A DNA stretch of 63,380 nt, counting the filler, from Folioceros fuciformis (lineage: Eukaryota): NCBI GenBank assembly GCA_049999805.1. It is 19 parts of 19 records of this genome, joined end to end, with 100 filler letters (N's around TTAATTAATTAA, not from the genome) between each part and the next. Parts side by side here need not be neighbours in the genome. Positions count along the whole stretch, not along the records: positions 52,915 to 59,589 come from JBNGIO010006866.1; 18 more parts are not named here. One strand, written 5' to 3'. The notes under the pieces are model-generated. The model saw only the letters and a program-made list of their open reading frames with translations. It searched no databases and had not been told where the DNA came from. A program made the translations under genes and the position numbers. How positions within the stretch are numbered: the stretch's first letter is position 1; every line of letters starts with the position of its first letter. Shown in pieces: positions 15,092 through 63,380 of this stretch.

Positions 15092-17533
15092 TCAAAATCT
15101 TTCTCCGAATCGGACAAACAGCGATCCAGAGCCCGCATTACAGTCTCTAGCATACTCGGCTCTCACAGAACCAAGCTTTATTCCTACGCCGTAGGAAGCA
15201 CCGTGGCCTGGCCGTTTGAAAAACTCTGTAGGGTTTCCTCGCACGTCCTTCGAAGAACCCAGATCTGTCCCGTATTCGACAAATCCATAAACGTGACGCT
15301 CCTTAATCGGTACTCGTACCTCAGTTGCAAGCTGCAACCAAGCAGCCAACCGACGTTAGTGGCAGCACATGGTATGGACCGACGTAAACATCAATTGATC
15401 TGAACGACAATAGGAGCACAGGGTTTACGGACCTCCAAGAAGTTTCTACAGGCACCGAGTTCACCCATATTGTAACCCCGGACAGAATACGGTCCACCAA
15501 GAGTAAACGCATCATAGCTTGCGAGGTCGCCGACACAGCCCCCATACCGTGCGTGAATCACTGCAACAGGAGGGGGGGCCTCGCTGTTCTTATCCTCTGG
15601 TTGAAGCTGGATGAAGCGTGTCAAGGTGATCATGTGCCGGTTGAAGAACGGGAACTTGCTGCCAATCCCCAGGCCTTGATCGCACTGCATCACGTGCACT
15701 ACTTTTGGTGAAGCTCAACGCAAGGAGAGAAACAGCGAGCACTAGGAATGTCTAAAGAACCTGGAAAGGTCGAAGACTTGGGGTAGAATGCAGCAAACCT
15801 GGAATATGTTCCGAGAACCAACAGGTGTGCCATTCACAAATCTGGTGTTATCGTGGGTGATGTTTCCCTGTAGGAAACCCACTCGGTCGATCCCCGTGTC
15901 ACTGTGGGTGGTTGGGGGTCCATCCACGCTGAGGGCGCCACTCGGAAGTGTGCGAGCACCGATGGTACAAATGGCACTAGTCTCATCCCTTGTCGTTACT
16001 TCCTCGAACACTAAACCATATGTGAACTTGCTTTGGCGAGTGAAATTCTGCACGAACACCACCAATGTAAAGCGCCAAGCAGATGGTTATTTTCCACCGA
16101 CCAATGTCACAGGGTTCACAATTGCTCACAAACCTCAGTGACGTTTGCTTTGAGACCAGCCCTGTCAACCCAGACAGCGGGCACTTCCTCGACCCCAAGC
16201 CCTCCAGTGAATACTGCACTAAGCTTGCGACTGTTGAAACAACTAGCTCGGAAGGTTCGATTCCGGGGGTCATGTATTCCATCCAAGTAAGGATGCACGT
16301 ACTCCATTTTGAATCCCAAATCATCCTGCTTGACAGGACCACACACATCAGATGTCTTGATCCTACTCCACTCACAAACGACTTTGCACCACTGCGAGAC
16401 AACGGCCGCGAAACTCTCACCTGCGGGTTCAAAAGATTATTGGATGTCACACAGCCCAGAATTGAACGGTTGAGACCTTGGATGTTTCTGTGCTCAAACG
16501 TTACACTGCCTCCTGGTTGGATTGATGCCTGCACAGCATATACAATGTAGCACACAGTAAGCAGGGGCCGGATTGGAGAGCCAGCGCACAGAAGGGCAGG
16601 GGCTGACCAGGGTAGGCTTTCCAGTGCTGCTCGGCACAATGCTCCACTCTGTGCTTACTTCGGCAGTCCTCTGATCAAGCTCCTTTAGCTTTACCTCAAC
16701 CACAATGCCTCCATCGATGTCCTCATCTGGCCTTGGGTTGACTTCAATATTTGAGAACAACGCAAGGCCATTGACATTCCTTAGGGCCTTCTTCCCTGCC
16801 TCGATATTGAAGACCTGACCAGCACAGAGCTGCCACCAAGAAAGCATGTGCGTCAGAACATTTCGGACCCACACAAAACAATGACGAATGAGACTCGCAC
16901 CGTCCCAGGTGACCCAACCTGTTCCGGCAACTCTCTGGCAATCACTTTCTGAGCCGTATTCCCTTCACAAGGGTTCCCCATCTTGTCCTGAAACATAATC
17001 TGGACTCTTGTAATATCACCTTCCACCACCTCGCACACCACTTCATTGGTATTCAGATTACCAAAATTCACCACCTGCGCGCACGCATAGCCCTCATCAT
17101 GATACCACCTTTGCACCCTGTCCCTGATCCTCTGCAGCATCCTGGCTGACACCTTCGTCTCCTGCCTCAGCCAAGAAGCAATCTCCCGTTCCACACTAGC
17201 CGGCAACATGCACGGCCGGGCCTGCCGCAACCTGTTCTTATACTCCTCCTCCTGCAGCTTCATATACTCCTCCCGCTGCTGGTCCGTCATGGTGGCCTCC
17301 GACTCCGGCGGCCTGCTTTGCGCTAGCAGTCCTACATTAGCACACTTGAAAGAATTTGCAGCATGCCACTGACTCTCCACGAACGATATCTGCATCGTAA
17401 TAGTCCCATCCGGCTGCGTCACCCCCTCCATCTCAACAGTTTGAAACATCCCGCAGTTCAACAAATTCTCCACTTCCGACTCCAGCTGCTGCTTCGTGTA
17501 AACCCCGCCAGGCCGCAGTGTCACCAGCTCAAA
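15092..17533 (-). CDS. TOC75-III: Chloroplast outer-envelope import channel Toc75-III (Omp85 family), 5'-partial
   Basis: Seven visible GT-AG exons. Motifs RPGGVYTK, RDRVQRWYHDEGYACAQVVNFGNLNT, LFSNIEVNPRPDE, NFTRQSKFTYG, LGGPYSVRGYNMGELG, C-terminal RFGERF. Confidence 0.95.
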
Positions 17534-18526
17534 NNNNNNNNNNNNNNNNNNNNNNNNNNNNNNNNNNNNNNNNNNNNTTAATTAATTAANNNNNNNNNNN
17601 NNNNNNNNNNNNNNNNNNNNNNNNNNNNNNNNNGTCCCACCTTAAGGGAATATGTGCCAGGCATTCCATTGTCCAAGACTATGTTTTTTTTCCATGGCTG
17701 TTTTGATTACAGGGAATACATTTCTAAAAGGGGAGAGCAAATCTTCGTTCAATCTGGCTAAGGAAGATAAGGCTGGGCGACCGAGGTCTGGGCTGGAATC
17801 ATGCCTTCATCCCTCTTGCTACCTTTGGCCAGAAATTTCTTGCGAAGGTGCAGAATTCTTCTACCATAGCCAGATTCTTCTGCCAGACCTCCATGGGACT
17901 CCCAGGCTCCACAAGAAACACTGAGAATCAAAGAAACCCCAACAATGCTTCCGTTCTCCAGAACAAAACTCGCAGAACTCTGTCTCTCTACATGGAAATG
18001 CTTCCTTGAATCTAGTTTAGTTGAGGAGAAGGGAAGGGCCGGTGATCTTGGCGAGTGCCAAAAATGCTAGGTCATCGTGTGAGATGGCTTGCTTCTTTGA
18101 GGCAGGAATCAGTTGGCTAAAACTTGTTGAATCCTGCAGGCAGCATCACGTCGGCTGCTGGTGGGAGAAATGAGAACAATGCTGTGCACCTGTCTCCTAT
18201 GAAGACAAGAGTCATGAGCATTCTATTCTCATCGCATAACCGAGCATCACGATCATAACAGCGATCACTGTCAATATAGGTGAATTTCCTGTGGGCACTA
18301 GTTTATTCCGATCACATCCATCTTGGATACTCCATTCTAGATGCTTGATTCACGATGGAGAAGATCGGCTGGACTACAGGGCTGGGAAAATGAGCTATTA
18401 CAACATAATACAAATGTGCCAAGAAAATCACGGCTGCCAGACCTGTCACACATGGAGGAGCTGTCACGGATGATAAGGGAGCTGCCAAGGGTAATGAAGA
18501 ACCTGTCACCGATCATGGAGGGTGTG

Positions 18527-19912
18527 TCACAGATCCAGAACCTGACAAGTGACCAGCTCCACAGAACCGAAGTTCTTGCTTGCAATGCTTTTCCAGCCTT
18601 CGACGTCAGATTCAGAGTTCCCACCTGAAGGTTGGTTGCCAAGTTCTGCTCGAAGGACTGCAATGTTGTCATGGATGTCTTTGGTTATCACATGAAGCTT
18701 CTCCCTGAAACCAGCCAGTAAGTACGGGGACTCCGCATCGGCTAATTCCAAGAGGATGGGAACTTTCTTCAGCACCACCTTCCACACATCCTGCTCTGAG
18801 TCGTACATCTTGATCTTGCTACCATCCATGGAACTTGTGGGATTGAGGGCATAGAGCTGCCCATTCACCACCACACTCAACTTGGTTCCTGCTTGCCGAG
18901 CAGGCCAGCCCTCCCCCATCCCTTGGGGCATCTCTAACCACAATTCTGACACTGGATCATAGACTTCACCCCCTACATCCACAAAGAACGGCCATGAGTA
19001 AAAGCTCTGAGGCACACATAACTTCCCCTTGAAAGCTGCCATTCCTGTTGCAATCGGCTTCAACATGTCTGCAAGGAAAGCTGTGGGCAAGACCTGAGCC
19101 CGCGCAAATGGCATGTTAGGGATTGGGGTCCAGGTGTTAGTTTCGGGCTCAAAGACCTCGGCAGACAGAAGGGGAGTCAAACCACCTCGGCCCCCACGGT
19201 TGACACCACCCACAGCATACAGCTTGTTGCCCAGCAGGCCGGTTTTGCAGTAAGCCCTTGGGGTAAGCATCGGGGCTGCTTCACTCCACTGGTTAACGAG
19301 AGGGTCATAACGCCAGACACAACGCATCGCACATGCCCTGGAAAACCCTCCCAAAACATACAGGCAGCCATTAGCAGCACCCGCGGAGCAACCACAAAAA
19401 GGAGTCCTATCTAGCGAGTCCCTCCGCCCGAACCATCCTCGGAACAAGCCCGATATCCTCAGACCCGAGGAGCCGATGGAGTTGAGCCACCCCCAGCCCG
19501 AAACTTGGTGCATGTCATGCTCATGGCTGATCTCCGGCATGAGCGGCAGCCGGCACCACTTCCCCTCCACAGGATCCAGCACGTGCCACACAAGCCGCTC
19601 TTCCTTATCTTTCAACAAAATATACAACCACTCTTCCGTCAGCCCGAGCTCCTTCCTCAGCTGAAAGATCTCGCTGGCGGCCAGCACTTCATGCCAGCCT
19701 CTGCAAACGGACCTCAACACGCTATGACACCCACGAGGCACCCGAGCCAAAACGTGCAGCGACAGCTCATCCGGCAGCCCGGGGATCAGTTGAGCTTGCT
19801 CACAACTGAGATACCCTGCCGACAAACGCTGCCGCTTGCTCGATTCCGGCTGTGGCATGTCACTGTGACCCTCATCAGGAACCCTCCTGGCGAGACTTAG
19901 CAATGACCCCAT
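18527..19912 (-). CDS. F-box/kelch-repeat protein (intronless, 461 aa)
   Basis: F-box LIPGLPDELSLHVLARVPR; kelch repeats LYVLGG...WRYDP and LYAVGG...AEVFEP; ATG at 19912. Confidence 0.93.
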   Translation of the reverse strand: MGSLLSLARRVPDEGHSDMPQPESSKRQRLSAGYLSCEQAQLIPGLPDELSLHVLARVPRGCHSVLRSVCRGWHEVLAASEIFQLRKELGLTEEWLYILLKDKEERLVWHVLDPVEGKWCRLPLMPEISHEHDMHQVSGWGWLNSIGSSGLRISGLFRGWFGRRDSLDRTPFCGCSAGAANGCLYVLGGFSRACAMRCVWRYDPLVNQWSEAAPMLTPRAYCKTGLLGNKLYAVGGVNRGGRGGLTPLLSAEVFEPETNTWTPIPNMPFARAQVLPTAFLADMLKPIATGMAAFKGKLCVPQSFYSWPFFVDVGGEVYDPVSELWLEMPQGMGEGWPARQAGTKLSVVVNGQLYALNPTSSMDGSKIKMYDSEQDVWKVVLKKVPILLELADAESPYLLAGFREKLHVITKDIHDNIAVLRAELGNQPSGGNSESDVEGWKSIASKNFGSVELVTCQVLDL

Positions 19913-20214
19913 CTGTCTTCCAATCACCAAACAGACCAGACCTGTCTAGTCAGGGACCCCAAAATCTTCTCCTCCCCTCAACCAGGGCGGGGCGGACAAA
20001 CCCCTCCGTCCACACCACTCCAGCCCCACAAGTTAGCTCACCTCCTCAATCTGCACATTCAAACACCCTTCACCATCCCCTCCCCATCCTCAAAAAATGC
20101 AAGTCCACATCCTCNNNNNNNNNNNNNNNNNNNNNNNNNNNNNNNNNNNNNNNNNNNNTTAATTAATTAANNNNNNNNNNNNNNNNNNNNNNNNNNNNNN
20201 NNNNNNNNNNNNNN

Positions 20215-23433: not shown

Positions 23434-26362
23434 CTTTAAGGAATATGTATCTTTTGCCCAGAGGCAAACTGGAGAGCAGTTAAAAACCCTGCGCAGTGAC
23501 AATGGTGGGGAATATACGTCACTAGCATTCCAAGATTATTGCAAGGAATTAGGCATTCACAGGCAGTTGACTATACCTTATACGTCTGCTCAAAACCCAT
23601 TGGCTGAACTTAATAACAAGCACCTCCAATCAGCTGCCAAGGTTATGCTCAAGGTGTCCGGCCTCACACGAGGTTACTGGGGTGAAGCTGTAGTTACAGC
23701 GGCATATATTAGAAACCGACTGCCTACTAAAGCATTTACCGGCTCAACACCTTTCGAGAGATGGACTAACAACAAACCTCGCATCAACCACTTACGCATA
23801 TTCGGATCTCCCGCATATGCTCACCTTGCAGAAACCCAACGGGTAAAGTTAGATTACAAAGCAAAGAAATACTTGTTTGTTGGATACACTGAAGGGATAA
23901 AGGGTTATAAACTGCTAGATCCACAAACCAGATCAACTGTACATGCACGTAGTGTAGTGTTCAACGAAAAACCCCTACTTACCCCTTCAGTAAATCAGCC
24001 CGAGACAGAACCACATTCTGAAGCACATTCTGATGACCTTGACAACAACAACACAAGTGATGACGAAGAGTTTACAACTCTGTTAGACAGTACCTCCTTC
24101 TCACAGCCAGTGCACCCTGCAGGATCACCTGTCCCACAGCAGGACAGTGATAGTTATGGCATTCGGTCAGACTTCCCTGATGAAGACATGGAAATAGGGC
24201 AAGATGGCATTGATAGCACACTCGATGATGCATTACCCTCAGATGACGTGGTGCAGCAAGAGGAACCAGCACTTGATGCAGAACCCGATATGCATGAGCC
24301 TGACCAACCTGAAGAAGAAACTGCTCCTCGTCGCAGTACAAGGCATCACACTGCGTCTCCGTATGAGTGGAGTACTATCCCTTACTCTTACCAAAGTTTT
24401 CTAGTCCAAGAAGATATGCCCATTGATATGGGCGAGCCCCAAACATACCATGAAGCAATTAACTCTCCTGAGAAGGACAAGTGGCACGAGGCCATAGAAT
24501 CAGAATACAGGTCCATTATGGACAACAAAACTTGGGTACTAGAGGACTTACCACCTGGCAGGAAAGCAGTGACCTGCAAGTGGGTCTTCAAATTGAAAAA
24601 GGCAGCAGATGGGAGTATAGCTAGATACAAAGCCAGGCTGGTGGCCCGTGGCTACAGCCAGGTTGAAGGACTCGACTACTCTGAAACTTTTTCTCCAGTA
24701 GTTCGAGCTACATCAATACGCACTCTGCTAGCAATTGCAGCACAATATGATTACTTGCTGCAACATATGGATGTAAAAACCGCCTTCTTGAATGGAGATC
24801 TGGAGGAAACAATTTACATGCGTCAGCCTGAGGGGTACGTTGACCCAAAACATCCAGACAAGGTATGTAGACTCATTAAGACACTCTATGGGCTAAAACA
24901 ATCACCACGTGCGTGGTACAAACGCATAGATACCTATTTAAAAAGATGCGATTTTGTCCAAAGCACTGCAGATTCTAATGTCTACAAGTTGCATAACAAA
25001 AATGGAATTGCTTACCTTGCACTGTATGTAGATGACGCTGTCATAATTTCCAGTAACTCCTCACAAATGGACAAAGTCAAAAATATACTCACATCAGAGT
25101 TCCAGATGACAGATCTAGGTCAGCTCACATGGTTCCTTGGCATCCAAATACGTCAAAACTTGGGTAAGCACACTATCTTCATCCACCAAGCACAGTTTGT
25201 TGTTCAGGTCCTTGCACGGTTTAGAATGCAGAATGCAACGCCTGCTGCAACGCCAATGGCCATGGGTGAGAAGCTTACACTGGAACAATGCCCGAAAAAT
25301 GAGAAGGAACGTACACAGATGGAGAAAACTCCGTACAGGCAAGCAGTGGGAGCGCTTATCTATTTCCGCAACTGGACGCGCCCTGAGCTCTCCCATGCTG
25401 TGGGTGTGATCTCTCAATTTCTGTCAAACTTTGGACCAGCACACTGGCTAGCAGTTCAAAGGTGCATGAGGTACCTTGGCGGCTCTCCGAGGCATGGACT
25501 GCTGTATAAACGAAGACCAAGCAAATTACAGCTCACCTGCTTCTGTGATGCCGACTGGGCGGCAGACTCAGACAGCCGCCGCTCCATCTCTGCACACTGT
25601 ATGATGCTAGGACAAGACAAGATCCAGGCTACCATTATATCTTGGCACAGTAAAAAACAATCAGTGGTAGCACTGTCCTCCACTGAGGCAGAATACATCT
25701 CTGCAACGACTGCGGCACAGGACATCATTCACTGCAGAGAGCTACTGGCAAGTCTTGGTGAAGGGCAAACAGCACCAACGCTCCTCCTGAGCGATAATCA
25801 GTCTGCCATAGCACTCACCCAAAACCCTGTCCTGCATGCCAGAACGAAACACATAGATATCAAACACCACTTCATACGACAAGTGGTGAGTGAAGGGCAT
25901 GCTAACCTACAACACGTGTCTACCCACAACAACATTGCAGACCTGCTCACAAAACCACTCCCCAGAGAGAAGCATGAAAAATTTGCAGCTGCAATGGGGT
26001 TAGTGGAGGATCCTGAGCCCTAAACACTAGTACTGTCCACCTAGCTAGCATTCCTTTTTTCTACCCATGCAGCACCTCACGAAGGGTGGAATCTTCTGGT
26101 AGGTATCTATGTAGAGTAGCGCTACCAAGGCTCTGCACAATTCAGACACCTACAGTCAGAAATCCAATCAAACACAGCTGCAGTGGGAGGAATTGCACCA
26201 GGGTACGTACCATAGCGGATAATTTGCCGCCTGTCATCAGTTAAGTCGCAGCCAGCATACATGAACCTGTCAAAACAGTTTGGGAGGCAGCGGAATGGAG
26301 CATCAGGCGCCAGTTGTGGAAAACCCTGCACAAATCTCCACCTCGAGTGTGCCAGCTCCAGC
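23434..26362 (+). mobile_element. Ty1/copia LTR retrotransposon fragment (integrase-RT-RNase H plus part of the 3' region)
   Basis: Frame open from 23435 to TAA at 26021-26023. Motifs LRSDNGGEY, YKARLVARG, MDVKTAFLNG, LYGLKQSPRAW, YVDD, CDADWA, STEAEY, ADLLTK in copia domain order. Confidence 0.95.
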
Positions 26363-51945: not shown

Positions 51946-53081
51946 AGTAGTAACCTTTTCAGCAAACAGAAGCAGACATGTCTGTCTGTGGGAATAGCTC
52001 ACAGAACGGAACATCTCAGAGGTTTTCCAGTTTGCGGACGCACCGCACATCTTAAGAAATTCTATAAGCTAGCACCTATAGTGTGATACAGATGATCTTA
52101 TACATATAGTAGACTCTATAACACACATGCTTCTATGCTAGCACACTCCCCGCGTAGGCTATGCGGAACTTTATTATAATATATGACCGACCGCTAAACT
52201 GATTTCAAGCCGTGTATACCATTAGAGCGCTTCTTAAAATTGCCTACCAGAGTAGGAATGGTAGCAAAATCAGATTTCTGATAACTAGCTGTCGAACATC
52301 TTCGCTTTCTCTGAAGGATGCGATTCATCTGGGCCAACTACCGTATCTATTACGAGGCCATCGCCATCTATGTAACAGCTAGAGCAAGGTTTTCGTTTGC
52401 TTGCCGTTTGACAAGATATTCCAACTCGGAGCCCAGCAGAGATCAAATTCCTCATTTGTGGCTTTCTGGCTTGTAACTGCACTCATTCGCGATATGGAAT
52501 CAACGAAAGCTTTCTCCTCGGGTAAGGTGAGATATTGTGATGCAAAATCAGTAGAACCATTGCGGCAAGTGAGGGGAAATTTCGCGTAATGGAGCAATAG
52601 ATGCTACCTTCTGGTACTGTGAAGTGCTACAGGTCAAGCTCAATCACAGCTAACCTATCCTCAATCTCCGCTGCAATCCATCAATGTACATCTCCCCCCA
52701 AATCAGCTCTCAAATCCTCGCCTAACCTCCTGCCCAATCCAACTCACAAACTCAATTCCCCAAAGCCCAAAAGCAAAACTTTCCGCGCAAACGCCCCTCC
52801 TACTCCCTCACCACNNNNNNNNNNNNNNNNNNNNNNNNNNNNNNNNNNNNNNNNNNNNTTAATTAATTAANNNNNNNNNNNNNNNNNNNNNNNNNNNNNN
52901 NNNNNNNNNNNNNNAGGTTAAACCACTTAGGGTTGCCATATGAACAGACACGCAAACAGTACTTAAACAGTTTTTGTACACATATAATATTATTCCTATT
53001 TTTTGCTGCTTGCTTGCCTCCGCCCGTTTTCCTCACATGGTATCAGAGCCATGCTCTGTTTCTTAATGCAATTCCTGGAAG

Positions 53082-53786
53082 ATGCCGAAACGGGGTGGTC
53101 CACCTAGATGTCCTAATCGTGGTGGGATCTTGAGACACTCTCAGCAATCAAGATACCCACCAAAACGAACAGCACTGCCACAATTGGATATTGACACAGT
53201 GCTTGACATCTATGGACTGAACTACCCCATTCAATTGTTGCAGAGGTTTGCCAAATTACGTGATATAAGGGAAACATCTGATTTTTATTTAAACAAAAAT
53301 CGAGAACTTGATCGTCTCTACAGAGAGCGTTCTCATAGGAGAAGGCAAAATCCTGATTTGTATTGCTTTCCTAAAACAGAAATATCTAGTCTACTAGATT
53401 TTCTGCTGGCGTCCGCTGCTGATACATCACACCCTTTGCCACATGCTTCTGGTAAACCTGCCACTGTCAAGCAACCTGCAGCAACACAGGCCAGTGACAG
53501 CGTTAGCTCTTTTATTGGTTTTGGGAGAGGATCCGACACAGGGATAGAATCTCTCCTGACCAGAATTCAACAATTGCTGTCACATATAATTACGAACCAG
53601 GAATTTTTGAAAAACAGAGTTCCGATACGAAACCCTAAAATTGAGCAAGCAGCTGTTAAGAGCACACAAGAAATCTCAAGAGACATCAAAAACGTTTCTG
53701 ATTTTCTGCAATTGATGGACTTGAGGCTTCGTGAGCGAGAACAGGGTTGCCCTCACTCGGGACCCAGCTCGCCTGCTCGAGCATAG
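53082..53786 (+). CDS. Retrotransposon-internal extra ORF upstream of gag (234 aa, unknown function)
   Basis: ATG-initiated intact ORF between PBS and gag; basic N-terminus and amphipathic, coiled-coil-like C-terminus. Confidence 0.6.
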   Translation: MPKRGGPPRCPNRGGILRHSQQSRYPPKRTALPQLDIDTVLDIYGLNYPIQLLQRFAKLRDIRETSDFYLNKNRELDRLYRERSHRRRQNPDLYCFPKTEISSLLDFLLASAADTSHPLPHASGKPATVKQPAATQASDSVSSFIGFGRGSDTGIESLLTRIQQLLSHIITNQEFLKNRVPIRNPKIEQAAVKSTQEISRDIKNVSDFLQLMDLRLREREQGCPHSGPSSPARA

Positions 53787-54222
53787 TGAATCTTCCGCTG
53801 CCATAGAGCGGGGGCAACATAGGCGCAGGAGCGCTCCCCCTGTATTCAGATATGAATCAGTGCATTCTCCCCTTGCACCTCTTGATCAGACTACATATTT
53901 TAGTGTACATTGGTCCACTTGTACCTATCACTTCAGCAGACGGTCACGACGGTTATTTTCCTAGTTTTAACCTAATTTTTTGACGAACTGTTATTCAAGT
54001 TAGGGTTTGCAGGCACATACATGACTTTTCGCACCAGGCATGCGCGCCCAACATGTTGTTTAGCCTAATAGGCATTGATCCAATGCTCTCTCCAGCTGAA
54101 TAACATAGTTCTCTGTCCCTGCATGTACTGGTTAGCGCCTTCAGCAATACTGGGTGTGCAAGGATGACAACTTAGCTATTTTTCAGAAGAAACCATAGTT
54201 CTTCTTAATTGTCTAGCTTTTC

Positions 54223-57200
54223 ATGTCCTTCGCAGCCCAGCTGAACGCTAATTTTAGCAGTCTCACGTTGCAACCTGTAAACCCAACGCCCCAACCACTC
54301 ATCATGGCTGCCCCGTCTGCCTCCTCCACATCTTACACATCAGATGTCAAAGGCAAGGATCGTTTCAATGGAACTGGTTACCAGGTTTGGAGGGTCCGTA
54401 TGAAGGCTGTTCTTGTTGCCAGAGGTGTGTGGACAAGTGTTGATGGGAGCTTTCAGAAGCCTGATCCCAAATCTCAGCCGGACGAGTACGCCAGGTGGGA
54501 GCACAATAACAGTGTGGCCATGGCTCTGCTCATCAACGCACTAACTGCAGACCTTGTCCTTGATGTTGAATTCTTGACCCTGGCCAAGGAAATTTGGGAT
54601 CAGTTGGAGACTACCTACCACTCCATAAACATGATGTCCTTGTCAGCCGTGAGGATGCAATTCTACTCTTTGAAAATGAAGGAGGGAGAGAAGATAGCAA
54701 CTCACACCAGCAAGTTTCGGCAATTGAGAGCCTAGATCACGTCGTTGACTGGCCACAAAATGCCTGAAGTGGAGGCTGTGTCTCAGCTCCTCATCAGTCT
54801 CCCCCCTTCATATCATAATTTCATCACCAGCCAAAACGCCTCCATCAAGCCTGGCATAGCTGCTGCCAACGCCCCCACTGTTGAGGAAGTGATTGGAGCA
54901 CTATACCAGGAAGAGCAAGCCAGGTTGCTTCATGGCTCTGTTGCTTCTAAAGCAGCACGCCCCGAGAAGGCTCTAGCTGTGAATTTCAGACCTAAAGGCA
55001 AGTCTAAATTCAGAGGAGGAAATCAAGGCGGAAGCTCTTCTGGTCGATCTGAATCTACCAGACCTGACTCTGCCAGTCCTTCCACCAAACATCCTGGCAC
55101 CTGCAATTGGTGTGGAACTCCTTGTCATTGGGCACGAGAGTGCCGCAAACGCAAGGCGGGTGAGCCACAGAAACAACCACTTGCCAACGTTGCTGTGAAG
55201 GAAAAGCAGAATGTTGACAAGGCAACAGTGAAGATACTTACTGTATGCTTATCAAGTTCTCTTCATAACAATGGCTGCTGGTATCTTGACTCTGGAGCCA
55301 CAACTCACATGTGTAAAGACAGGGAGTTGTTCTCCACCCTAGACCTTGTTCATGTCCATGACAAGGTGCTGTTAGGTGACGAGCAAAGTAAATCTAGCCT
55401 GCGTATAGAAGGCAAAGGCACCTGTGTTTTCAGACTGCATGATGACACAGACCTCACGTTAGAAGACGTGTTGTACGTACCTAGCATGGCCAAAAACCTC
55501 ATGTCTATGAGTAGGCTGATGCAATTACGAACCTTTTGCATTCGTGCTGATTTCAACCACTACTCGTTTTACAAGAAGGCATATCCTGAAAAATGTGTCT
55601 TCAAAGGCATACTAGATCATGACCTTTACAGGTTGAACATAGTATGTAGCCAACCACCTGTCGTTAGACATGCTGCACACTCCACTGCCGCCCATCCACT
55701 TAGTTCTAAGCAGGAAGCAATTTTGTGGCATGCTAGGCTGGGCCACGTTAATAGGTCCAAACTGATTGACATGTCTGTTACAGAATGTCATAGAGAACCT
55801 CTGCCGAAATGTTTCAAAGACTTACCTGTTTGTGAGTCTTGCATTTTAGCAAAACACAAGGAGTCCGCCTTCCTAGGTACACCTGCCCATAGAGCCACAC
55901 AAGTGCTGGAATTAATTCACGCTGATATATCTGGAAAGATACATGAACCCTCCCTAGGAGGATCACGATATTTCTTCACTTTAACAGATGATTTCAGCAG
56001 ATATACATGGACCTTCCCAATGCAGCTCAAAAGTGATACCTTCAGCATTTTCAAAGACTGGCTCTCTACAACTCAAAGGCAATCAAGCATGCATCTGAAA
56101 ATATTAAGGTCAGACAACGGATCTGAGTTTGTGAACTCATCCTTTGATGAGCTGCTCCAGGAACATGGCATCCTTCGCCAGCTAACAGTCCCCTACACAC
56201 CACAACAAAACGGTGTGTCTGAGAGGAAAAATCAGACGTTGCTTGGCATGACCAGAAGTATGCTTATTTGGGCAGGCTTACCGCAAGGATACTGGGCTGA
56301 GGCCATCGTAACAGCTACATACATACTGAACAGGGTCCTTACTAGCTCCGTTCCACAAAAGACACCATATGAGGTGTTCTGGAACAGGAGACCTAGCTTA
56401 CTACACCTAAGAACTTTTGGTTCACGTGCTTTTGCATATATCCCTACTAAAAAACGAAAGAAGCTAGAACCTCGTGCTCAAGGACTGGTTTTTGTAGGCT
56501 ACAGTGAGCATGCGAAAGCCTACAAACTGTACAACCCACTACAAGACTCTATGCTCCTTGCTCGAAGTGTTACCTTTTTGGAGCCCAACTCACCGGCCCC
56601 TGGCACACTACAAGACGTTCTATCTTTGTCAACAGATAACGAAGATGTTGTCTCGACTAATCCAGTAGAGTACCCCCTGGATGACATGGAACTGGTTGAC
56701 ATCCCACCTGCCAAACCTGCAGCTGCTGCTGTTGAAGCATTGGAGCTTGATCCAGAGCCTCCAATCCATCAACAGTCCGGCCAACAGTCAGACAATGATG
56801 CACAAGTTTCCGACAATGGTGAAGTAGCCACAGAACGGACTCACAATGAAAATGCAAACGGAGTTGCAGAGATCAATGACTTACCCATGCAGGACCAAGA
56901 GGGGGCTGATGCTCCAGACCCTGCGGATAATGTAAACCCTCATGCCAATGAGCCAGCACCTGAACCACCTGCCCCTGAGCTTAGACGCTCAACTCGTCAT
57001 CGCCCACCTCCCTCAGAATGGGCAGAACCAAGATATCAATCTGTAGACTTCAGGACTAACCTTGCAGCTAAGACTTCCTTGCCAGATGAACCAACTAGCC
57101 TGCAGCAGGCCTTCAATGGGCCTGAGTCCATACAATGGAAGGCTGCTGTTGAGGACGAATACCAATCTCTTGTGAAAAATAAGACTTGGATTCTAACAGA

Positions 57201-58674
57201 CCTTCCAACAGGGCGCAAGGCTATCTCCTGCAAATGGGTTTTTAAACTCAAGTTAAATGCTAAGGGTGAGGTAGCTAGATTCAAAGCCAGGTTAGTTGCC
57301 CGAGGGTTCACACAAGTAGAGGGTTTGGATTACCAAGAAACGTTTTCACCAGTTGTGAGAACACAATCCATTCGTATCCTCCTTGCTTATGCTGCAGAAC
57401 ATGATCTTGACTTGCACCAGATGGACGTTTGTACAACATATTTATATGGGACCCTAGACGAGGAGCTTTATATGCACCAGCCTGAAGCTTACGTAGACCC
57501 TGCACACCCAGACAAAGTGCTCAAGCTCTTGAAGTGTATTTATGGTTTGAAACAGAGTGGGAGAGTGTGGTATTTAACCATGCATCTCTATTTGACCAGC
57601 ATAGACTTTGTTCAGAGTGTAGCGGACACGAATGTCTACAGACTTACCCGTGGCTCGTCTCTTGTCCTCCTTGCCCTTTACGTGGATGATGTGATCTTTG
57701 CTACGAATGACCAGCAGCTATTATCAAACGTCAAGGTTAAGCTCTCCAGCAAGTTTGACATGAAGGATATTGGCGAACTTAAATTTTGCCTTGGCATCCA
57801 GCTATTGCGGGTCCGCTCCGAGGGCCTCCTGTTCATCCACCAATTCAAATATGTTAACGAGATTCTGTGCAAGTTCCACCTGGACCAAGCTCATCCAGCA
57901 GCCACACCATATGCAACAGGAGTCAAGCTCATGAGAGAACAATGCCCTGAAACTTCAGCTAACAAGAAAGACATGGCTGACGTACCTTATCGACATGCCG
58001 TCGGAAGTTTGATTTTTGTGGCCAACTGGACTCGTCCAGATATCCAATATTCTGTGAGCACTGTCTCGCAGTTCCTTGAGAATCCTGGCAGGCCCCACTG
58101 GGTAGCTGTTAAACGCATCTTCCGTTACCTCAAAGGCACCCATCGTTATAGACTTATGTACAGACGTAGCGGACACTCTAAGCTCACTCTTACCGGATTT
58201 ACAGATGCAGATTGGGCCACAGATTCCGACTCCCGCCGCAGTCTTTCAACCTACTGTTTTCTGCTGGCCAATGCTGCTGTCACCTGGAGCTGCAAAAAGC
58301 AAGCTTCCATATCCCTCAGCAGCACTGAATCTGAGTATAAATCGCTGATTGAGGCCTCTAAGGAAGCTGAGTGGGAGAGGACTTTCCTCGCTGACCTCAA
58401 CGAGAAGCAGCTCCAGCCTACCCTTCTTCTCTGTGACAACACATGTGCACTGGAATTAGTGGCCAAGCCCAAATATCACGCTCGAACAAAGCATATTGAA
58501 ATTCAACACCACTACATACGTGATGTTGTGGAACGCGGGATTGTCAAGGTGGATTACATCCCGACTGATGGAAATATAGCTGATATCTTGACCAAAGGAC
58601 TGCCTAAGCCTAAGCACTACTTACACATGGAAGGCCTAGGACTACATGATTTCTCTGCCTATTTTGACCAGTGA
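54223..58674 (+). CDS. Copia gag-pol polyprotein interrupted by one in-frame TAG (54733-54735)
   Basis: Gag FNGTGYQVW...AKEIWDQL; Zn knuckle CNWCGTPCHWAREC; protease WYLDSGATTHM; GAG-pre-integrase LWHARLGH; integrase LRSDNGSEF, QQNGVSERKN; RT YVDD; RNase H TDADWA, ADILTK. Confidence 0.95.
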
Positions 58675-59232
58675 TGTGCTATCATCTGGATTGAGTGGGA
58701 ACCGTTCTTTCAGCCCCTTATGCTGAACACTTTCCACTCCTTCACATCCAGACACTGCACAAGCACATGTAAATGGACAAACAGTCAGATCCTACAGGCA
58801 GAATACACAAGGCTTATGAGGACCAGCAAGCGGATGAAGCACAACTTCCTACCCAATCGCTTGGCCGCATCCCCTACAGCAACCCTATTCTTCATATTGC
58901 TTCTTCCTCAGAAACTCCAGCAAGGTGGCAGCTTTCTCCAGCTGCTTGACGAGGCTCTTTTCACCCTCTGTCCCCAAGGACTCTTTGGGCAGCTTTATCT
59001 CCTCCCCTTCCTTCACACGTCCCCAGATCACTGAGATGTTGAGTTCCACATGATAGCCACCTGCGCAGATGCGCTGGCCCGTGCAGTGGCGCCCTTCCCA
59101 TGACCAACCGATGCTTGGCTCCCCCTGCGTGGAAGATGCCGAGCCTGAGGTAGACTGTGTAGGCTTTGCCTTGCGTCGCCGACCAGATCTGCGATCACCA
59201 GCACCATAATTAGTCCCTCTCCGTGTCACCAT
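58642..59232 (-). pseudogene. Antisense accessory ORF of the copia element, RING-like Cys/His domain, with three internal TAG stops
   Basis: MVTRRG... open for 115 aa; in the same frame, past TAGs at 58887-58885, 58851-58849 and 58794-58792, it reads GCCRGCGQAIG*EVVLHPLAGPHKPCVFCL*DLTVCPFTCAC. Confidence 0.5.
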
Positions 59233-59689
59233 GGTCAGGAAGCTTAACAGCTGGGTGCAGGCAAACGCGAAGAGCTGTATTTACGCGATGAGGGCAGCAA
59301 CGTTGGTGACCATCCTTAAGAGCTGCTGAGATTCCTGTCCAGGACTGAAGATGGATGATTGATCCCCAACAACCGTGTACCGAGCATGCATGCGAGCCTC
59401 GTGGTGGCCTTTTCGCTTCGCGCAGCGCTTCCCCGTGGTTTTTTTTCGCGTTAATGATCTGCATGAAGGTTCACTAGGCTTACTGTGTTTAGTTTAAGAG
59501 GGGGTGTTAAAAGGTGAATGGCTTTAATTAAACCTAACACATAGGTTAAACCACTTAGGGTTGCCATATGAACAGACACGCAAACAGTANNNNNNNNNNN
59601 NNNNNNNNNNNNNNNNNNNNNNNNNNNNNNNNNTTAATTAATTAANNNNNNNNNNNNNNNNNNNNNNNNNNNNNNNNNNNNNNNNNNNN

Positions 59690-60776
59690 ATCGTACTCCA
59701 TCACAGGAGCAAAAGACTGCTCACAAGCATTGGACTAAGAGAGCATGTAAAGTGTTACACTGGCTCTCCTTAAGCATTTTAGATGCTATGGTCATATAGA
59801 TCACGGGATGTGAGTCTCCGAAGGATGCATGGGACATACTCATGAGGAACTATGGAAATGTCACACATGCTAGGAAAATCCAGTTGAAGCAGCAGTTCAA
59901 CAACTTGTCACGTGGTAGCAAATTCATACTCGTGTATACAACAGAGGTGAAGACCATAGCTGATCAGCTTGCTACAATCGGTGTAAGTGTGACGGAAGAT
60001 GACATGGTTGCAGTTACTCTGAACGGACTTGGCAAGGGGTACAAGTCCTTTGACACATCAATCTCTGTGAGAGTTGAGTTCCCAAGTTGGGATGAATTGG
60101 TTGCTTTGTTGCTACATGAGGAAGTTAAGCTTGGTCTGAACACAGGTTCAGGTATATCTCAAGGGAGAGACAATATTTTGTTTTCTAACCAGCGTGGGAG
60201 AGGCCACAGAGGTCGTGGTTCATTCCGAGGACGGGGTGATGCTCGGAACACGCAGAATTAGCAAGACAATTGGCGTGGAGGAAATGCGCAAGGCCAGAGA
60301 GAATCTGGAAGTTTTAGAGGCGTAGGCAGAGCCACAAGAGGAAGAGATGGTTCTTTTCAATCTCATGACCATTCCAATAGAGACAAGGACTGTTACTACT
60401 GTGGTAAGGTTGGTCATATTGCTAAGGACTGCTATAAGCAGCAAGCAGACATGAGAGGAAAAGGAAGGCAGCATGGGAACTATGCCTCCTCTAGTAATGC
60501 TGGACATGACTATGATAGGTTGTTCGCCATGCAACATCTCTCTGAACAGGATGGGTAGAATGATGAGAGATGGTACATTGATTTAGGAGCATCAAACCAC
60601 ATGACTCCGCATGGCGAGTGGTTTAACAAGATGGATGCAAGTCCCCATCGTCATGTGTGTACAGGAGATGACACACAACATGACATAAAGCACAGAGGAA
60701 TTGTTCCTCTTAGGATTCCGAATGGTCAACAGAAGAGTCTGCAAGATGTGTTGCATGTTCCAACCATTACGAAGAA
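59690..60776 (+). mobile_element. Degenerate Ty1/copia gag-protease fragment
   Basis: Gag DAWDIL...TLNGLGKGY; Zn knuckle CYYCGKVGHIAKDC; protease WYIDLGASNHMT; VLHVPTITK. In-frame TAG at 59797, 60259 and 60556. Confidence 0.9.
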
Positions 60777-60876: not shown

Positions 60877-61420
60877 TCGTCCTTCTTCCCATCCTCCTTC
60901 TTGTAGCCGTCGTCCTTCTTCCCTTCAAACTTGGAGGATCCATCTTCTTTCTCTAGCTTGATGGACTGGGAGCGCGTATACATTCCGTTGCGGTAGCGGT
61001 GGAGGTCTCTCTCATCATCTTCCCCCACCCACTTATCCCATACATCTTCGGCGGCGTTCCACAGTCTCGGCTTCCCATCGTCATAGCGTCCCACCTGGCC
61101 GCGTTCATTGCTGGAGAGCAACTTCCTTGGACCACCATTTGACAAAACCTGCAAGAAAATCCACCCACCGATACCGCTCTCAGCAGGCGCGGCACCGATA
61201 CCCAGAACGCACTTGAGCGTGCTCCGATCGATAATCACACCAAAACGTGGATCCAAACTATTTGCAACTCACCCGGTCCGGAACTCCTCCAGAGCTCCAC
61301 GCGCTAATCGCCAGCAGCTACAATAAACACAGGACGACGTCGACAAAGCAAAGAGTCAATGCAACCAGCCATTGATTGACGAATGCTCACCATTACCACC
61401 CCCTGCATTGAATTTTCCAT
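60877..61420 (-). CDS. Possible small secreted protein with RKLL motif and K/E/D/G-rich tail, 3'-partial
   Basis: Tentative GT-AG model MENSMQGVVM|LLAISAWSSGGVPDR|VLSNGGPRKLLSS...GKKDDGYKKEDGKKD; last exon open to the contig end. Confidence 0.35.
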
Positions 61421-62274
61421 GTACACCAGCATCAAGCATCAAAGAGACTAACTTCATGAAGTAAGTCACTCACAGCGAGCAATAAGGCCAAGCCTGCTAC
61501 AGTTCTGCCCGAGAAAGCCATCGTCGATGCACCAATCGATTCCAGGTGGCTGACTCCAATGTGACTGATCTTTTCTTAGCTGTAGAAGACAAGCACGATG
61601 CACTCTCTGACAGGATTTGTCTGAAGACCTGAGCCCAGCAGTGACCCTTATATACACTGGTATCAGTGGACTTGATCCAGGATAACGTTCACATTTGCCA
61701 TCATGTCAACGGATGATAGCACAGCACGCAACACTTGTCCCCAATCTCCAGTTCTGATCCAGCAAGACACTGCCACATTCGCAGCCTTCGAAATCAGCGA
61801 ACAGATCACTCTCCGCAATGTCAGAGACCGCTTGCTTGGAAATGCCCAGCCCCATGGACTTTCAGTTACTAGGCTCCTCGTCTTCGAGAGCACTGAAGCA
61901 CGTGCCGAAATCAACTGCAGATGCATGTACAACTCACTTCCAACGGTATACAATGCGGCACCCTGAGCAAATGAATGCTGGCTCGCTCCATGCCTTCGAG
62001 AACCCTCCATCATGAGGCTCCATGGCCAAGGGCCCAAGGGTAACTAACGGACGGAACACTGAAGCGGACTCGCATATGTGGGAGCTGACGAATGAACAGC
62101 AGCCACGGGAGCTCTACACGTTTCGCGTTTTACGAGCTTCAACTCGCGTTTCATGAGACAAAAAAGAACGAGAGTGAGGAAGAGAAGGAGAGGCGTAGGG
62201 AAGTGTCAGCCCCACTCCTATTTCCTATTGGAGTGTTGGGATGAACCAATTTGCGAGGAGCGCAAGCTGAGGAG

Positions 62275-63380
62275 ATGGCACACGGGCAACCGTTTCCCTT
62301 GGCGGGGCAGACAGTTGCTCCAGATCCCAGCAGCTTGTGGGCCGGCTGCGTGCGCAAGCCTCCGTACCCGACCAATGCCGCCTGGCTGAACTACGTGCTC
62401 AATTCTGGAGATCAGCCTGAGTACATCCATCCCTTTCTGGTGCAATCGAGCTCGGGGGGCATCTCCATCTGCTACCCTTCCAGAGTAGTGCAGACTGCCT
62501 ACATCATTCAGGCCTTCCAGAAGGACTTCACGGTGTCCAGCAGGGAACGTGGGAGCGCAGCGCATGCGGTGTCGGAGTACGATGACCTGAGTGTGACGCT
62601 GGAGCTGGGGGATGGAGTCACGGTGCCTCTGGTCAGGGGCAGCCCGTACATCACCTGCCTGTTCCGCCGCAGCATGCCCTGCTTCTCCACGATTCATGGG
62701 GTGTTGGATGTTTGGACAGGCCAGGGCGGAACCAAGCACAAGGTGACGTGTAATAATGGGCAGGTCTGGGTGATATACTCCTCCAAGCCTCTCTATCTGT
62801 CCAGGGATTTGACCTGCAGCGAGCCCTTCAGCGGGGTGATCAGGATCTCGGTGCTGACGAGCCCGGATGCTGAGAGCATTTTGGATCGGTATCACAGGTG
62901 CTATCCCGTGAGGGGGAGAGCGGATTTCCCTGCCTGCTTTACGTTGCACTACCACTGGGAGACTGCGGGGTGGGGAGAGCTTCTCATGCTCAGCTTGCCT
63001 GTGCACCGCCAGATCCTCGCGAAGCCTGCCGGGGGAAGCAGAATTAGAGTCCAGCTTTTCAACAGCATCGATGGTCCCCTGCAGGGTGTGGTGGGTGACA
63101 TGTGGTTGCTGAAGGAGAAGGAAGTGCAGGCTAGCTGGTATGCCTCCAAGTGGGTCAGCACAGACGATCGGGCAGTGATAGCTGCTGCTCTTGAAAGCGA
63201 TGCGGATGCCCTGTCCGCGATCCAAGTCCCCTCCACTTACTTCCACGGAAAAGCCCTTGCCAGAGCTGCCAGGCTGGCTCTCATTGCTTCCGAGGTTTCG
63301 TGCCAGCATGTGCTGACGAAGGTCCAGGGATTTCTGAAAGAAGCCATTACCCCATGGCTAGTAGGAGAGTTTCAGGGGAA
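62275..63380 (+). CDS. Glycoside hydrolase family 81 endo-1,3(4)-beta-glucanase, 3'-partial
   Basis: Not in the ORF track because it runs off the window. Motifs PYPTNAAWLN, GDQPEYIHPF, YDDLSVT, LVRGSPYIT, NNGQVWVIYSS, LLMLSLPVH, SIDGPLQGVVGD, TYFHGKALARAARLALIA. Confidence 0.93.
   Translation, partial: MAHGQPFPLAGQTVAPDPSSLWAGCVRKPPYPTNAAWLNYVLNSGDQPEYIHPFLVQSSSGGISICYPSRVVQTAYIIQAFQKDFTVSSRERGSAAHAVSEYDDLSVTLELGDGVTVPLVRGSPYITCLFRRSMPCFSTIHGVLDVWTGQGGTKHKVTCNNGQVWVIYSSKPLYLSRDLTCSEPFSGVIRISVLTSPDAESILDRYHRCYPVRGRADFPACFTLHYHWETAGWGELLMLSLPVHRQILAKPAGGSRIRVQLFNSIDGPLQGVVGDMWLLKEKEVQASWYASKWVSTDDRAVIAAALESDADALSAIQVPSTYFHGKALARAARLALIASEVSCQHVLTKVQGFLKEAITPWLVGEFQG

Follow-up and report, generated by a model that had tools for sequence, protein, structure and literature searches.

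The window, a stretch of 63,380 nt from Folioceros fuciformis, consists of 19 short contigs with N spacers between them, so that neighbouring contigs carry no information on genomic context. The element studied here fills its own contig of 6675 nt (52915–59589), with its LTRs collapsed. It is a Ty1/copia element, as the sequence-only reading had it: Pfam gag, protease, integrase and RVT_2 domains follow one another in copia order, and an LTR and a primer binding site (PBS) are present, as is a polypurine tract (PPT). On the plus strand, LTR sequence at the 5′ end of the contig closes in CA (52915–53037; the LTR is about 161 nt long, and the two collapsed LTRs have a terminal overlap of 47 nt). 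It is followed by the PBS (53038–53049), which we take to be of the full tRNA-Met type, by an extra sense ORF of 234 amino acids (53082–53786), and by gag-pol (54304–58674, with gag, PR, IN, RT and RH), which is broken by a stop at 54733–54735. Between pol and the 3′ LTR lie a conserved hairpin on the plus strand (58827–58863) and, on the minus strand, the 115-residue body of an antisense ORF (58885–59232) with a hydrophobic leader of 27 codons ahead of it and in frame (59233–59313), itself interrupted by a stop at 59281–59283. The PPT (59496–59504) and the start of the 3′ LTR (TG..., 59505–59589), both on the plus strand, complete the element, the end of the contig cutting off the rest of the LTR.

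The codon at the gag stop is a sense codon in eight of the nine relative loci checked, which speaks against programmed read-through and leads us to regard the studied copy as decayed. Its RT–RH region is at most 59% identical to any of the 120 database hits listed, none of which is a member of a named lineage, and the copia lineage appears on this evidence to be unsampled. In contigs from three DNA runs of one sample (depth 6.6–20), the 3′ end of the element is joined to its 5′ end across a single LTR; a tandem array, a one-LTR circle or an assembly collapse could each give such a junction. Against 52915–59540, run X3 shows 424 differences, of which 388 are G>A and C>T, as in a converted library or heavy deamination. 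The window holds two other copia fragments (23434–26362 and 59690–60776). The first falls outside the clade with the hairpin and antisense ORF in an RNase H tree, and both features are absent from the 360 nt that remain of it after pol. Host genes for a Toc75-type POTRA protein, a Kelch F-box protein and a GH81 glucanase are found on neighbouring, unlinked contigs (16853–19945 and 60877–63380) and indicate a land-plant source.

We used the antisense ORF as a protein query against the 87-Mb genome assembly, which returned 55 places at E up to 0.01, and fetched the best 30. These are 31–100% identical to the query, and in 29 of them the ORF faces copia pol, the thirtieth lying on a contig without pol. 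The ORF sits between pol and the 3′ LTR in many copies, a position that places it in the class aORF-3R. Removal of two partial copies and one near-duplicate left 27 loci for a comparison of reading frames over a 72-codon core. The antisense frame is stop-free in 20 of the 27 (9 stops), against 0–2 of 27 in each of the other five frames (56–144 stops); here as elsewhere the loci were picked for having antisense ORF or hairpin features, and the counts are not clade prevalence. The core also has an excess of third-position changes, and its amino-acid pattern is kept at 30% identity. Nei–Gojobori dN/dS values for the studied copy relative to loci L007 and L008 are 0.17 and 0.22 for the core, 0.29 and 0.37 for the basic arm that precedes it, and 0.17 and 0.17 for RNase H, in pairs that are non-independent and partly dead copies. 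The agreement between the core (0.17–0.22) and RNase H (0.17) points to purifying selection comparable to that on pol.

One RNA run gave a single 38-nt piece, which speaks neither for nor against expression. By eye, the distance from the PPT to the AUG of the leader is nearly constant, at about 190–230 nt (59314–59495 on the minus strand, and in relatives). Of 19 loci, 11 have the word CACGAGG upstream of the antisense ORF and 7 have AAACCCT, in counts that take no account of kinship, and the LTR contains a telomere-like box. These two words and the LTR box are candidate components of an antisense promoter.

The sequence-only reading had carried this ORF much further, into a 197-codon accessory gene whose distal part would encode a RING-like zinc finger once three TAG codons were restored to CAG. 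As a description of the studied copy this is accurate. The minus-strand frame 58642–59232 translates as quoted into 197 codons with three internal TAGs (58885–58887, 58849–58851 and 58792–58794), overlaps the final 33 nt of pol, sits within the approximately 830 nt from the pol stop (58674) to the end of the PPT (59504), and contains the Cys/His spacing described. A RING finger is built on eight Cys and His ligands, spaced as C3HC4 or C3H2C3; this canonical pattern is not matched in the tail of the studied copy, in keeping with the imperfect fit already conceded.

As one gene, the frame does not hold. Its first 115 codons behave as coding and the remainder does not: the stretch read as a RING (58642–58884, minus strand) lies beyond the true stop and is not a conserved coding region. 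We compared this tail with four close relatives of 74–81% DNA identity. The first and second TAGs are TAG in all four, and the third is a sense codon other than CAG in all four, so that 0 of 12 codons is CAG. None of the four retains the second Cys of the CxxC, the second His or the final Cys of the CVFC. Each also contains an extra stop within the tail, three carry a 1-nt indel (the fourth has an N gap there), and tail dN/dS against the four is 0.71, 0.59, 0.79 and 1.22, clearly unlike the core. For the tail, the sequence-only reading fails by the refutation criterion that it had set itself. In 27 family loci the read-through frame closes shortly past the predicted helix of the body, with TAG in 9, TGA in 12 and TAA in 6 (L011 and L016 being broken near the helix). 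Protein similarity ends at the helix, and the tail has no similarity in distant families. Pfam identified 0 families in the tail or in the whole read-through with X at the stops, and a search of PDB sequences with the X-containing read-through gave one unrelated match at E 1.2. The clustering of Cys in the studied copy is uncommon by chance: the same Cys count is reached in 380 of 5000 dinucleotide shuffles and a three-pair Cys pattern, which is loose and post hoc, in 12 of 5000. The start of the gene also shifts, as the family begins 27–30 codons upstream of the start assigned earlier. What stands of the proposed accessory gene is a selected antisense ORF that has a basic arm at its N terminus and is located between pol and the PPT; the RING, the E3 ligase and the CAG>TAG decay fall away.

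The mirror frame of the tail on the sense strand (58720–59034, plus) opens with ATG. Its first 55 codons are stop-free in the studied copy and in four of four close relatives, one of them readable over 35 codons, with dN/dS of 0.26–0.52 among close relatives, and the frame is closed in distant families. A subfamily-specific ORF may overlap the region on this strand.

One thing within the stretch read as a RING is conserved across families, namely a nucleotide motif, GGATGAAG followed by AATC, that is exact in 26 of 27 family loci; the 'His' of LHP in the zinc-finger translation is the complement of this motif. A covarying stem of 7 bp encloses it. Positions 1–7 of the stem are paired in 21, 21, 21, 20, 17, 21 and 14 of 21 distinct arm sets, with T-A, A-T and C-G interchanged at position 3 and G-C replaced by A-T at position 4. 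The variable stem positions are paired in 93 of 105 cases versus 76.4 ± 2.7 when partners are shuffled (reached in 0 of 5000), a shuffle that ignores kinship between loci, and versus 31–47 in slid-arm controls. With 7 G-U against 5 A-C outside the invariant pair, the data only weakly favour one strand for the hairpin. A pattern search of the genome found 43 places, compared with 0 for a reversed control, and the hairpin lies 43–230 nt after the end of copia RNase H in all 30 of these 43 that were fetched. Rfam returned no match to the hairpin and one chance match in pol (E 0.33). Among 38 distinct RNase H loci, seven have the hairpin without a detectable antisense ORF, some of them on short contigs and four with 950 nt to search; the hairpin and the protein may therefore be independent. 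Copia elements L085, L089, L105, L111 and L088 have the hairpin and no detected antisense ORF, and in L088 the PPT follows just 220 nt past the hairpin. Two other roles for the motif were rejected. Long-range pairing with a fixed site in the element gave no shared position in four elements, and for a short ORF starting at the hairpin ATG the distance to the next stop is not frame-constrained.

The leader of the antisense ORF is 27–30 codons long. Of the 24 loci with a readable junction, 16 have it in frame and continuous with the body, the junctions of L008 and L034 having been read from translation. It is broken in the studied copy, L007, L008, L024 and L027, which includes all three copies of the studied subfamily, while L018, L023 and L034, members of another subfamily, have it in the +1 frame. 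Thus, the anchored form is not universal. In these last three loci the +1-frame leader runs on into a short acidic tail, making up a separate ORF of about 49 amino acids that overlaps the first part of the body. In 28 of 28 pairs, the leader's pN is lower than its pS. Its 19-residue hydropathy is 1.44–2.56 in all 15 leader-bearing rows, the transmembrane call being made from the hydropathy window only, and 12 of the 15 have three or more K/R within the 15 residues after it. That two subfamilies retain selection on the core without an anchored leader suggests that the anchored form is not essential.

A second Met opens the basic arm, which typically reads M-R/K-T-R-S-G (MVTRRG in the studied copy), with Arg at position 4 in 22 of the 23 arms found, a count partly built into the search pattern. 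After a linker, AlphaFold2 run on 24 sequences predicts strands at residues 43–57 and 60–73, forming a β-hairpin (43–73), and a helix at 88–114, with block pLDDT values of 67–81 over residues 41–110 and a pTM of 0.33 for the monomer. The helix is amphipathic, with a moment of 0.41–0.61 in 24 of 25 rows scored. Some hairpin-bearing loci carry antisense ORFs that have diverged far more and still show the leader, the arm, the β-hairpin and the helix.

Searches for homologues, Pfam families and folds yielded nothing that assigns an activity to the antisense protein. Among 2788 candidates of lengths 37–287 there were 0 homologues. A profile search of 1.84 billion representatives gave five matches, two of which are relatives on single contigs (P0002 and P0003) without a name; the other three were discarded as unrelated repeat proteins, judged by sequence. 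There was no match among PDB sequences or in a metagenome scan with one member of the family, and the best Atlas match, at 0.79, is not usable. PF04195 (Transposase_28) or an SMC-like domain was found in 0 of 24 members at Pfam E up to 1. Fold searches with the antisense model (pTM 0.33) found nothing above background: the best hit has Z 3.6 and rmsd 5.3 over 65 residues, and viral folds gave no match at E below 0.33.

The extra ORF between the PBS and gag has an Arg/Gly-rich start and a predicted helical C terminus. It has 57 genomic matches and begins 44 nt after the PBS start in the five loci that have the PBS word beside a full-length match. Its dN/dS is 0.14–0.47 in 11 distant pairs and 0.64–0.67 in two close pairs, with one pair saturated, and 0.5–1.2 in several young pairs. 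It has no named homologue among 2388 candidates and no Atlas match, and its model (pTM 0.22) matched nothing in a viral fold search. Four of the five stretches examined have the 5′ ORF first, then gag-pol, the hairpin, the antisense ORF and, last, the PPT; the fifth lacks the 5′ end of the element.

Taken jointly, these comparisons make it highly likely that this copia clade carries a small antisense protein gene under purifying selection between RNase H and the PPT, that the gene stops at the first TAG and the hidden zinc finger is not real, and that elements with the antisense ORF have two further conserved features, another ORF between PBS and gag and a hairpin shortly downstream of pol.

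Antisense extra ORFs are already known in gypsy elements; here the host is a copia clade that has a further 5′ ORF and a hairpin. Antisense 3′ additional ORFs are described in plant Ty3/gypsy elements, among them maize Grande gene23, rice RIRE2 and the TRP28 ORFs of Retand (PMC7264820, PMC11963269), and the antisense protein of Grande is nuclear and has its own promoter (PMC7264820). The ORF studied here resembles these in its position between pol and the 3′ LTR, its antisense orientation, its retention across copies, its basic or nuclear character and its unassigned function. It differs in belonging to a Ty1/copia host, in having 115–160 amino acids in a spacer of 0.8 kb (2.9–6.6 kb for Retand), and in encoding a protein with a hydrophobic leader and a second start and without a Transposase_28 or SMC match.

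Within copia, the REXdb survey (PMC6317226) gives SIRE 3′ ORFs as 74% sense and 1% antisense, lists small percentages for Bianca and Ikeros that we do not assign to an orientation, and lists none for the other 13 copia lineages. The survey counted ORFs of at least 250 codons, so that both extra ORFs of the studied clade would have been missed. The elements studied here resemble surveyed copia elements in having an extra ORF after pol, a tRNA-Met PBS and, as in most copia lineages, a single gag-pol. However, the SIRE env-like ORF is sense after pol, whereas the ORF here is antisense wherever pol is present. In sunflower, Athila 14 has sense and antisense 3′ ORFs, and Tekay has a 5′ aORF (PMC11728184). 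The Athila 14 antisense ORF is like ours in having one transmembrane helix, with a predicted ER location, and the Tekay ORF is like our 5′ ORF in being helical, partly disordered and basic; one element may hold both ORF types. These are gypsy elements, however, and the transmembrane helix is mid-protein there and N-terminal here, in a comparison made by description. A literature search on extra and antisense copia ORFs, which covered subscription journals thinly, found no copia lineage that combines a 5′ sense ORF with a 3′ antisense one, and the copia layout with two extra ORFs and a hairpin is apparently undescribed.

The best explanation overall, to which we give a probability of roughly 50%, is that the antisense ORF is a selected gene with a regulatory accessory role. 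A more detailed version, which we put forward tentatively and at somewhat less than even odds, is that it encodes an accessory protein that binds nucleic acid, has a regulatory role and exists in a membrane-anchored and a soluble form. The gene would be transcribed from the side of the 3′ LTR and PPT, and its two in-frame AUGs would yield a long form with the N-terminal membrane anchor and a short soluble form that starts at the basic arm. In the long form, the N terminus would be short and the basic residues would lie on the cytosolic side. The arm could serve nuclear import and contact nucleic acid or nucleosomes, and the predicted hairpin-plus-helix domain probably oligomerises. The protein would then work on the RNA or chromatin of its own element, in the manner of a regulatory accessory factor of retroviruses, with the conserved RNA hairpin as the obvious candidate target. 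In the decayed studied copy, the short form alone might be made.

The same features could also reflect a role in movement or trafficking, in which the anchored form would hold the element's RNA or particles at the ER, the nuclear envelope or plasmodesmata and aid their passage between cells or into the germ line, with the 5′ ORF as a partner. The hydrophobic N-terminal segment, basic patch and amphipathic helix are kept in the most distant loci (L094, L096, L106 and L110), and the combination of such a segment with three or more K/R in 15 residues and a helix, as in FAST-like proteins, is found in 12 of 15 rows. The sORF2 proteins of the MDG1 group, which are FAST-like, likewise have one hydrophobic segment that is followed by a polybasic patch, together with an amphipathic helix, and a small transmembrane protein of Drosophila MDG1 serves cell-to-cell transfer (10.1101/2025.03.14.642691); a role at plasmodesmata has been suggested for the env-like ORFs of plants (PMC7264820). 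However, the MDG1 proteins are encoded in sense by animal gypsy elements, have an ectodomain of about 30 residues and are often myristoylated (MGxxxS/T), whereas here only 0–11 residues precede the hydrophobic window and the myristoylation motif occurs in 0 of 15 rows. The loss or frameshift of the leader in two subfamilies in which the core is still selected also argues against this role, as does the antisense orientation, which uncouples the protein from expression of the genomic RNA. We consider a movement function rather unlikely.

Tethering to chromatin, or protection from silencing, is likewise a doubtful explanation. Here the M-x-x-R-S-G arm would anchor the protein to the H2A–H2B acidic patch, or the domain would bind element DNA and counter silencing. 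The near-constant Arg at position 4 of the arm (22 of 23, partly by search pattern) and the CACGAGG word, which 11 of 19 loci have upstream of the ORF, are compatible with it. The acidic-patch motif of LANA is labelled MXLRSG, and one member of the family reads MRLRSG. LANA contacts the patch through M6, R7, L8 and R9 (PMC9040877). The likeness nevertheless covers four residues: most members have Thr, Lys or Arg in place of the Leu of LANA, the studied copy reads MVTRRG, and a membrane anchor ahead of the arm is left unexplained.

It is very improbable that what is conserved in the region is RNA or DNA signals or a frame on the sense strand, with the antisense frame as a by-product. A cis-acting hairpin does adjoin the ORF, and no stop interrupts the mirror frame of the tail in the studied copy or any of the four relatives, at dN/dS of 0.26–0.52, but over the core the other five frames have 56–144 stops against 9, the third-position excess and the amino-acid pattern conserved at 30% identity are those of a coding frame on the antisense strand, and in distant families the sense frame does not stay open. 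A decayed RING-type E3 ligase of 196 amino acids is hardly credible, because its nine Cys in 70 codons and the rarity of the loose pattern among shuffles (12 of 5000) are set against stops common to relatives, lost ligands, an indel and an extra stop, dN/dS of 0.59–1.22, the lack of similarity in distant families, and Pfam and PDB searches without a RING match.

The regulatory accessory role could be taken one step further. On this more ambitious and unlikely proposal, the copia lineage would have independently reached a design like that of complex retroviruses, with a 5′ sense and a 3′ antisense accessory gene, structured RNA and no env-like gene. The antisense protein would recognise the hairpin, and its anchored form would serve to export RNA or particles from the nucleus or to carry them from cell to cell.

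Copia elements are usually minimal gag-pol units, the sense 3′ ORF of SIRE being the main exception. A backward small gene, an extra gene at the front and an RNA hairpin are extras seldom reported in copia-type elements, and a 250-codon cut-off in surveys would conceal genes this small. We know of no established function for antisense extra ORFs, those of gypsy elements included. The clade described here is a compact test case, with a protein of about 145 amino acids, a deep natural alignment, two starts and a candidate RNA target adjoining the gene. It also offers natural subfamilies in which the anchor is lost or uncoupled, together with a second accessory gene, and the localisation and binding of the antisense protein are directly testable.
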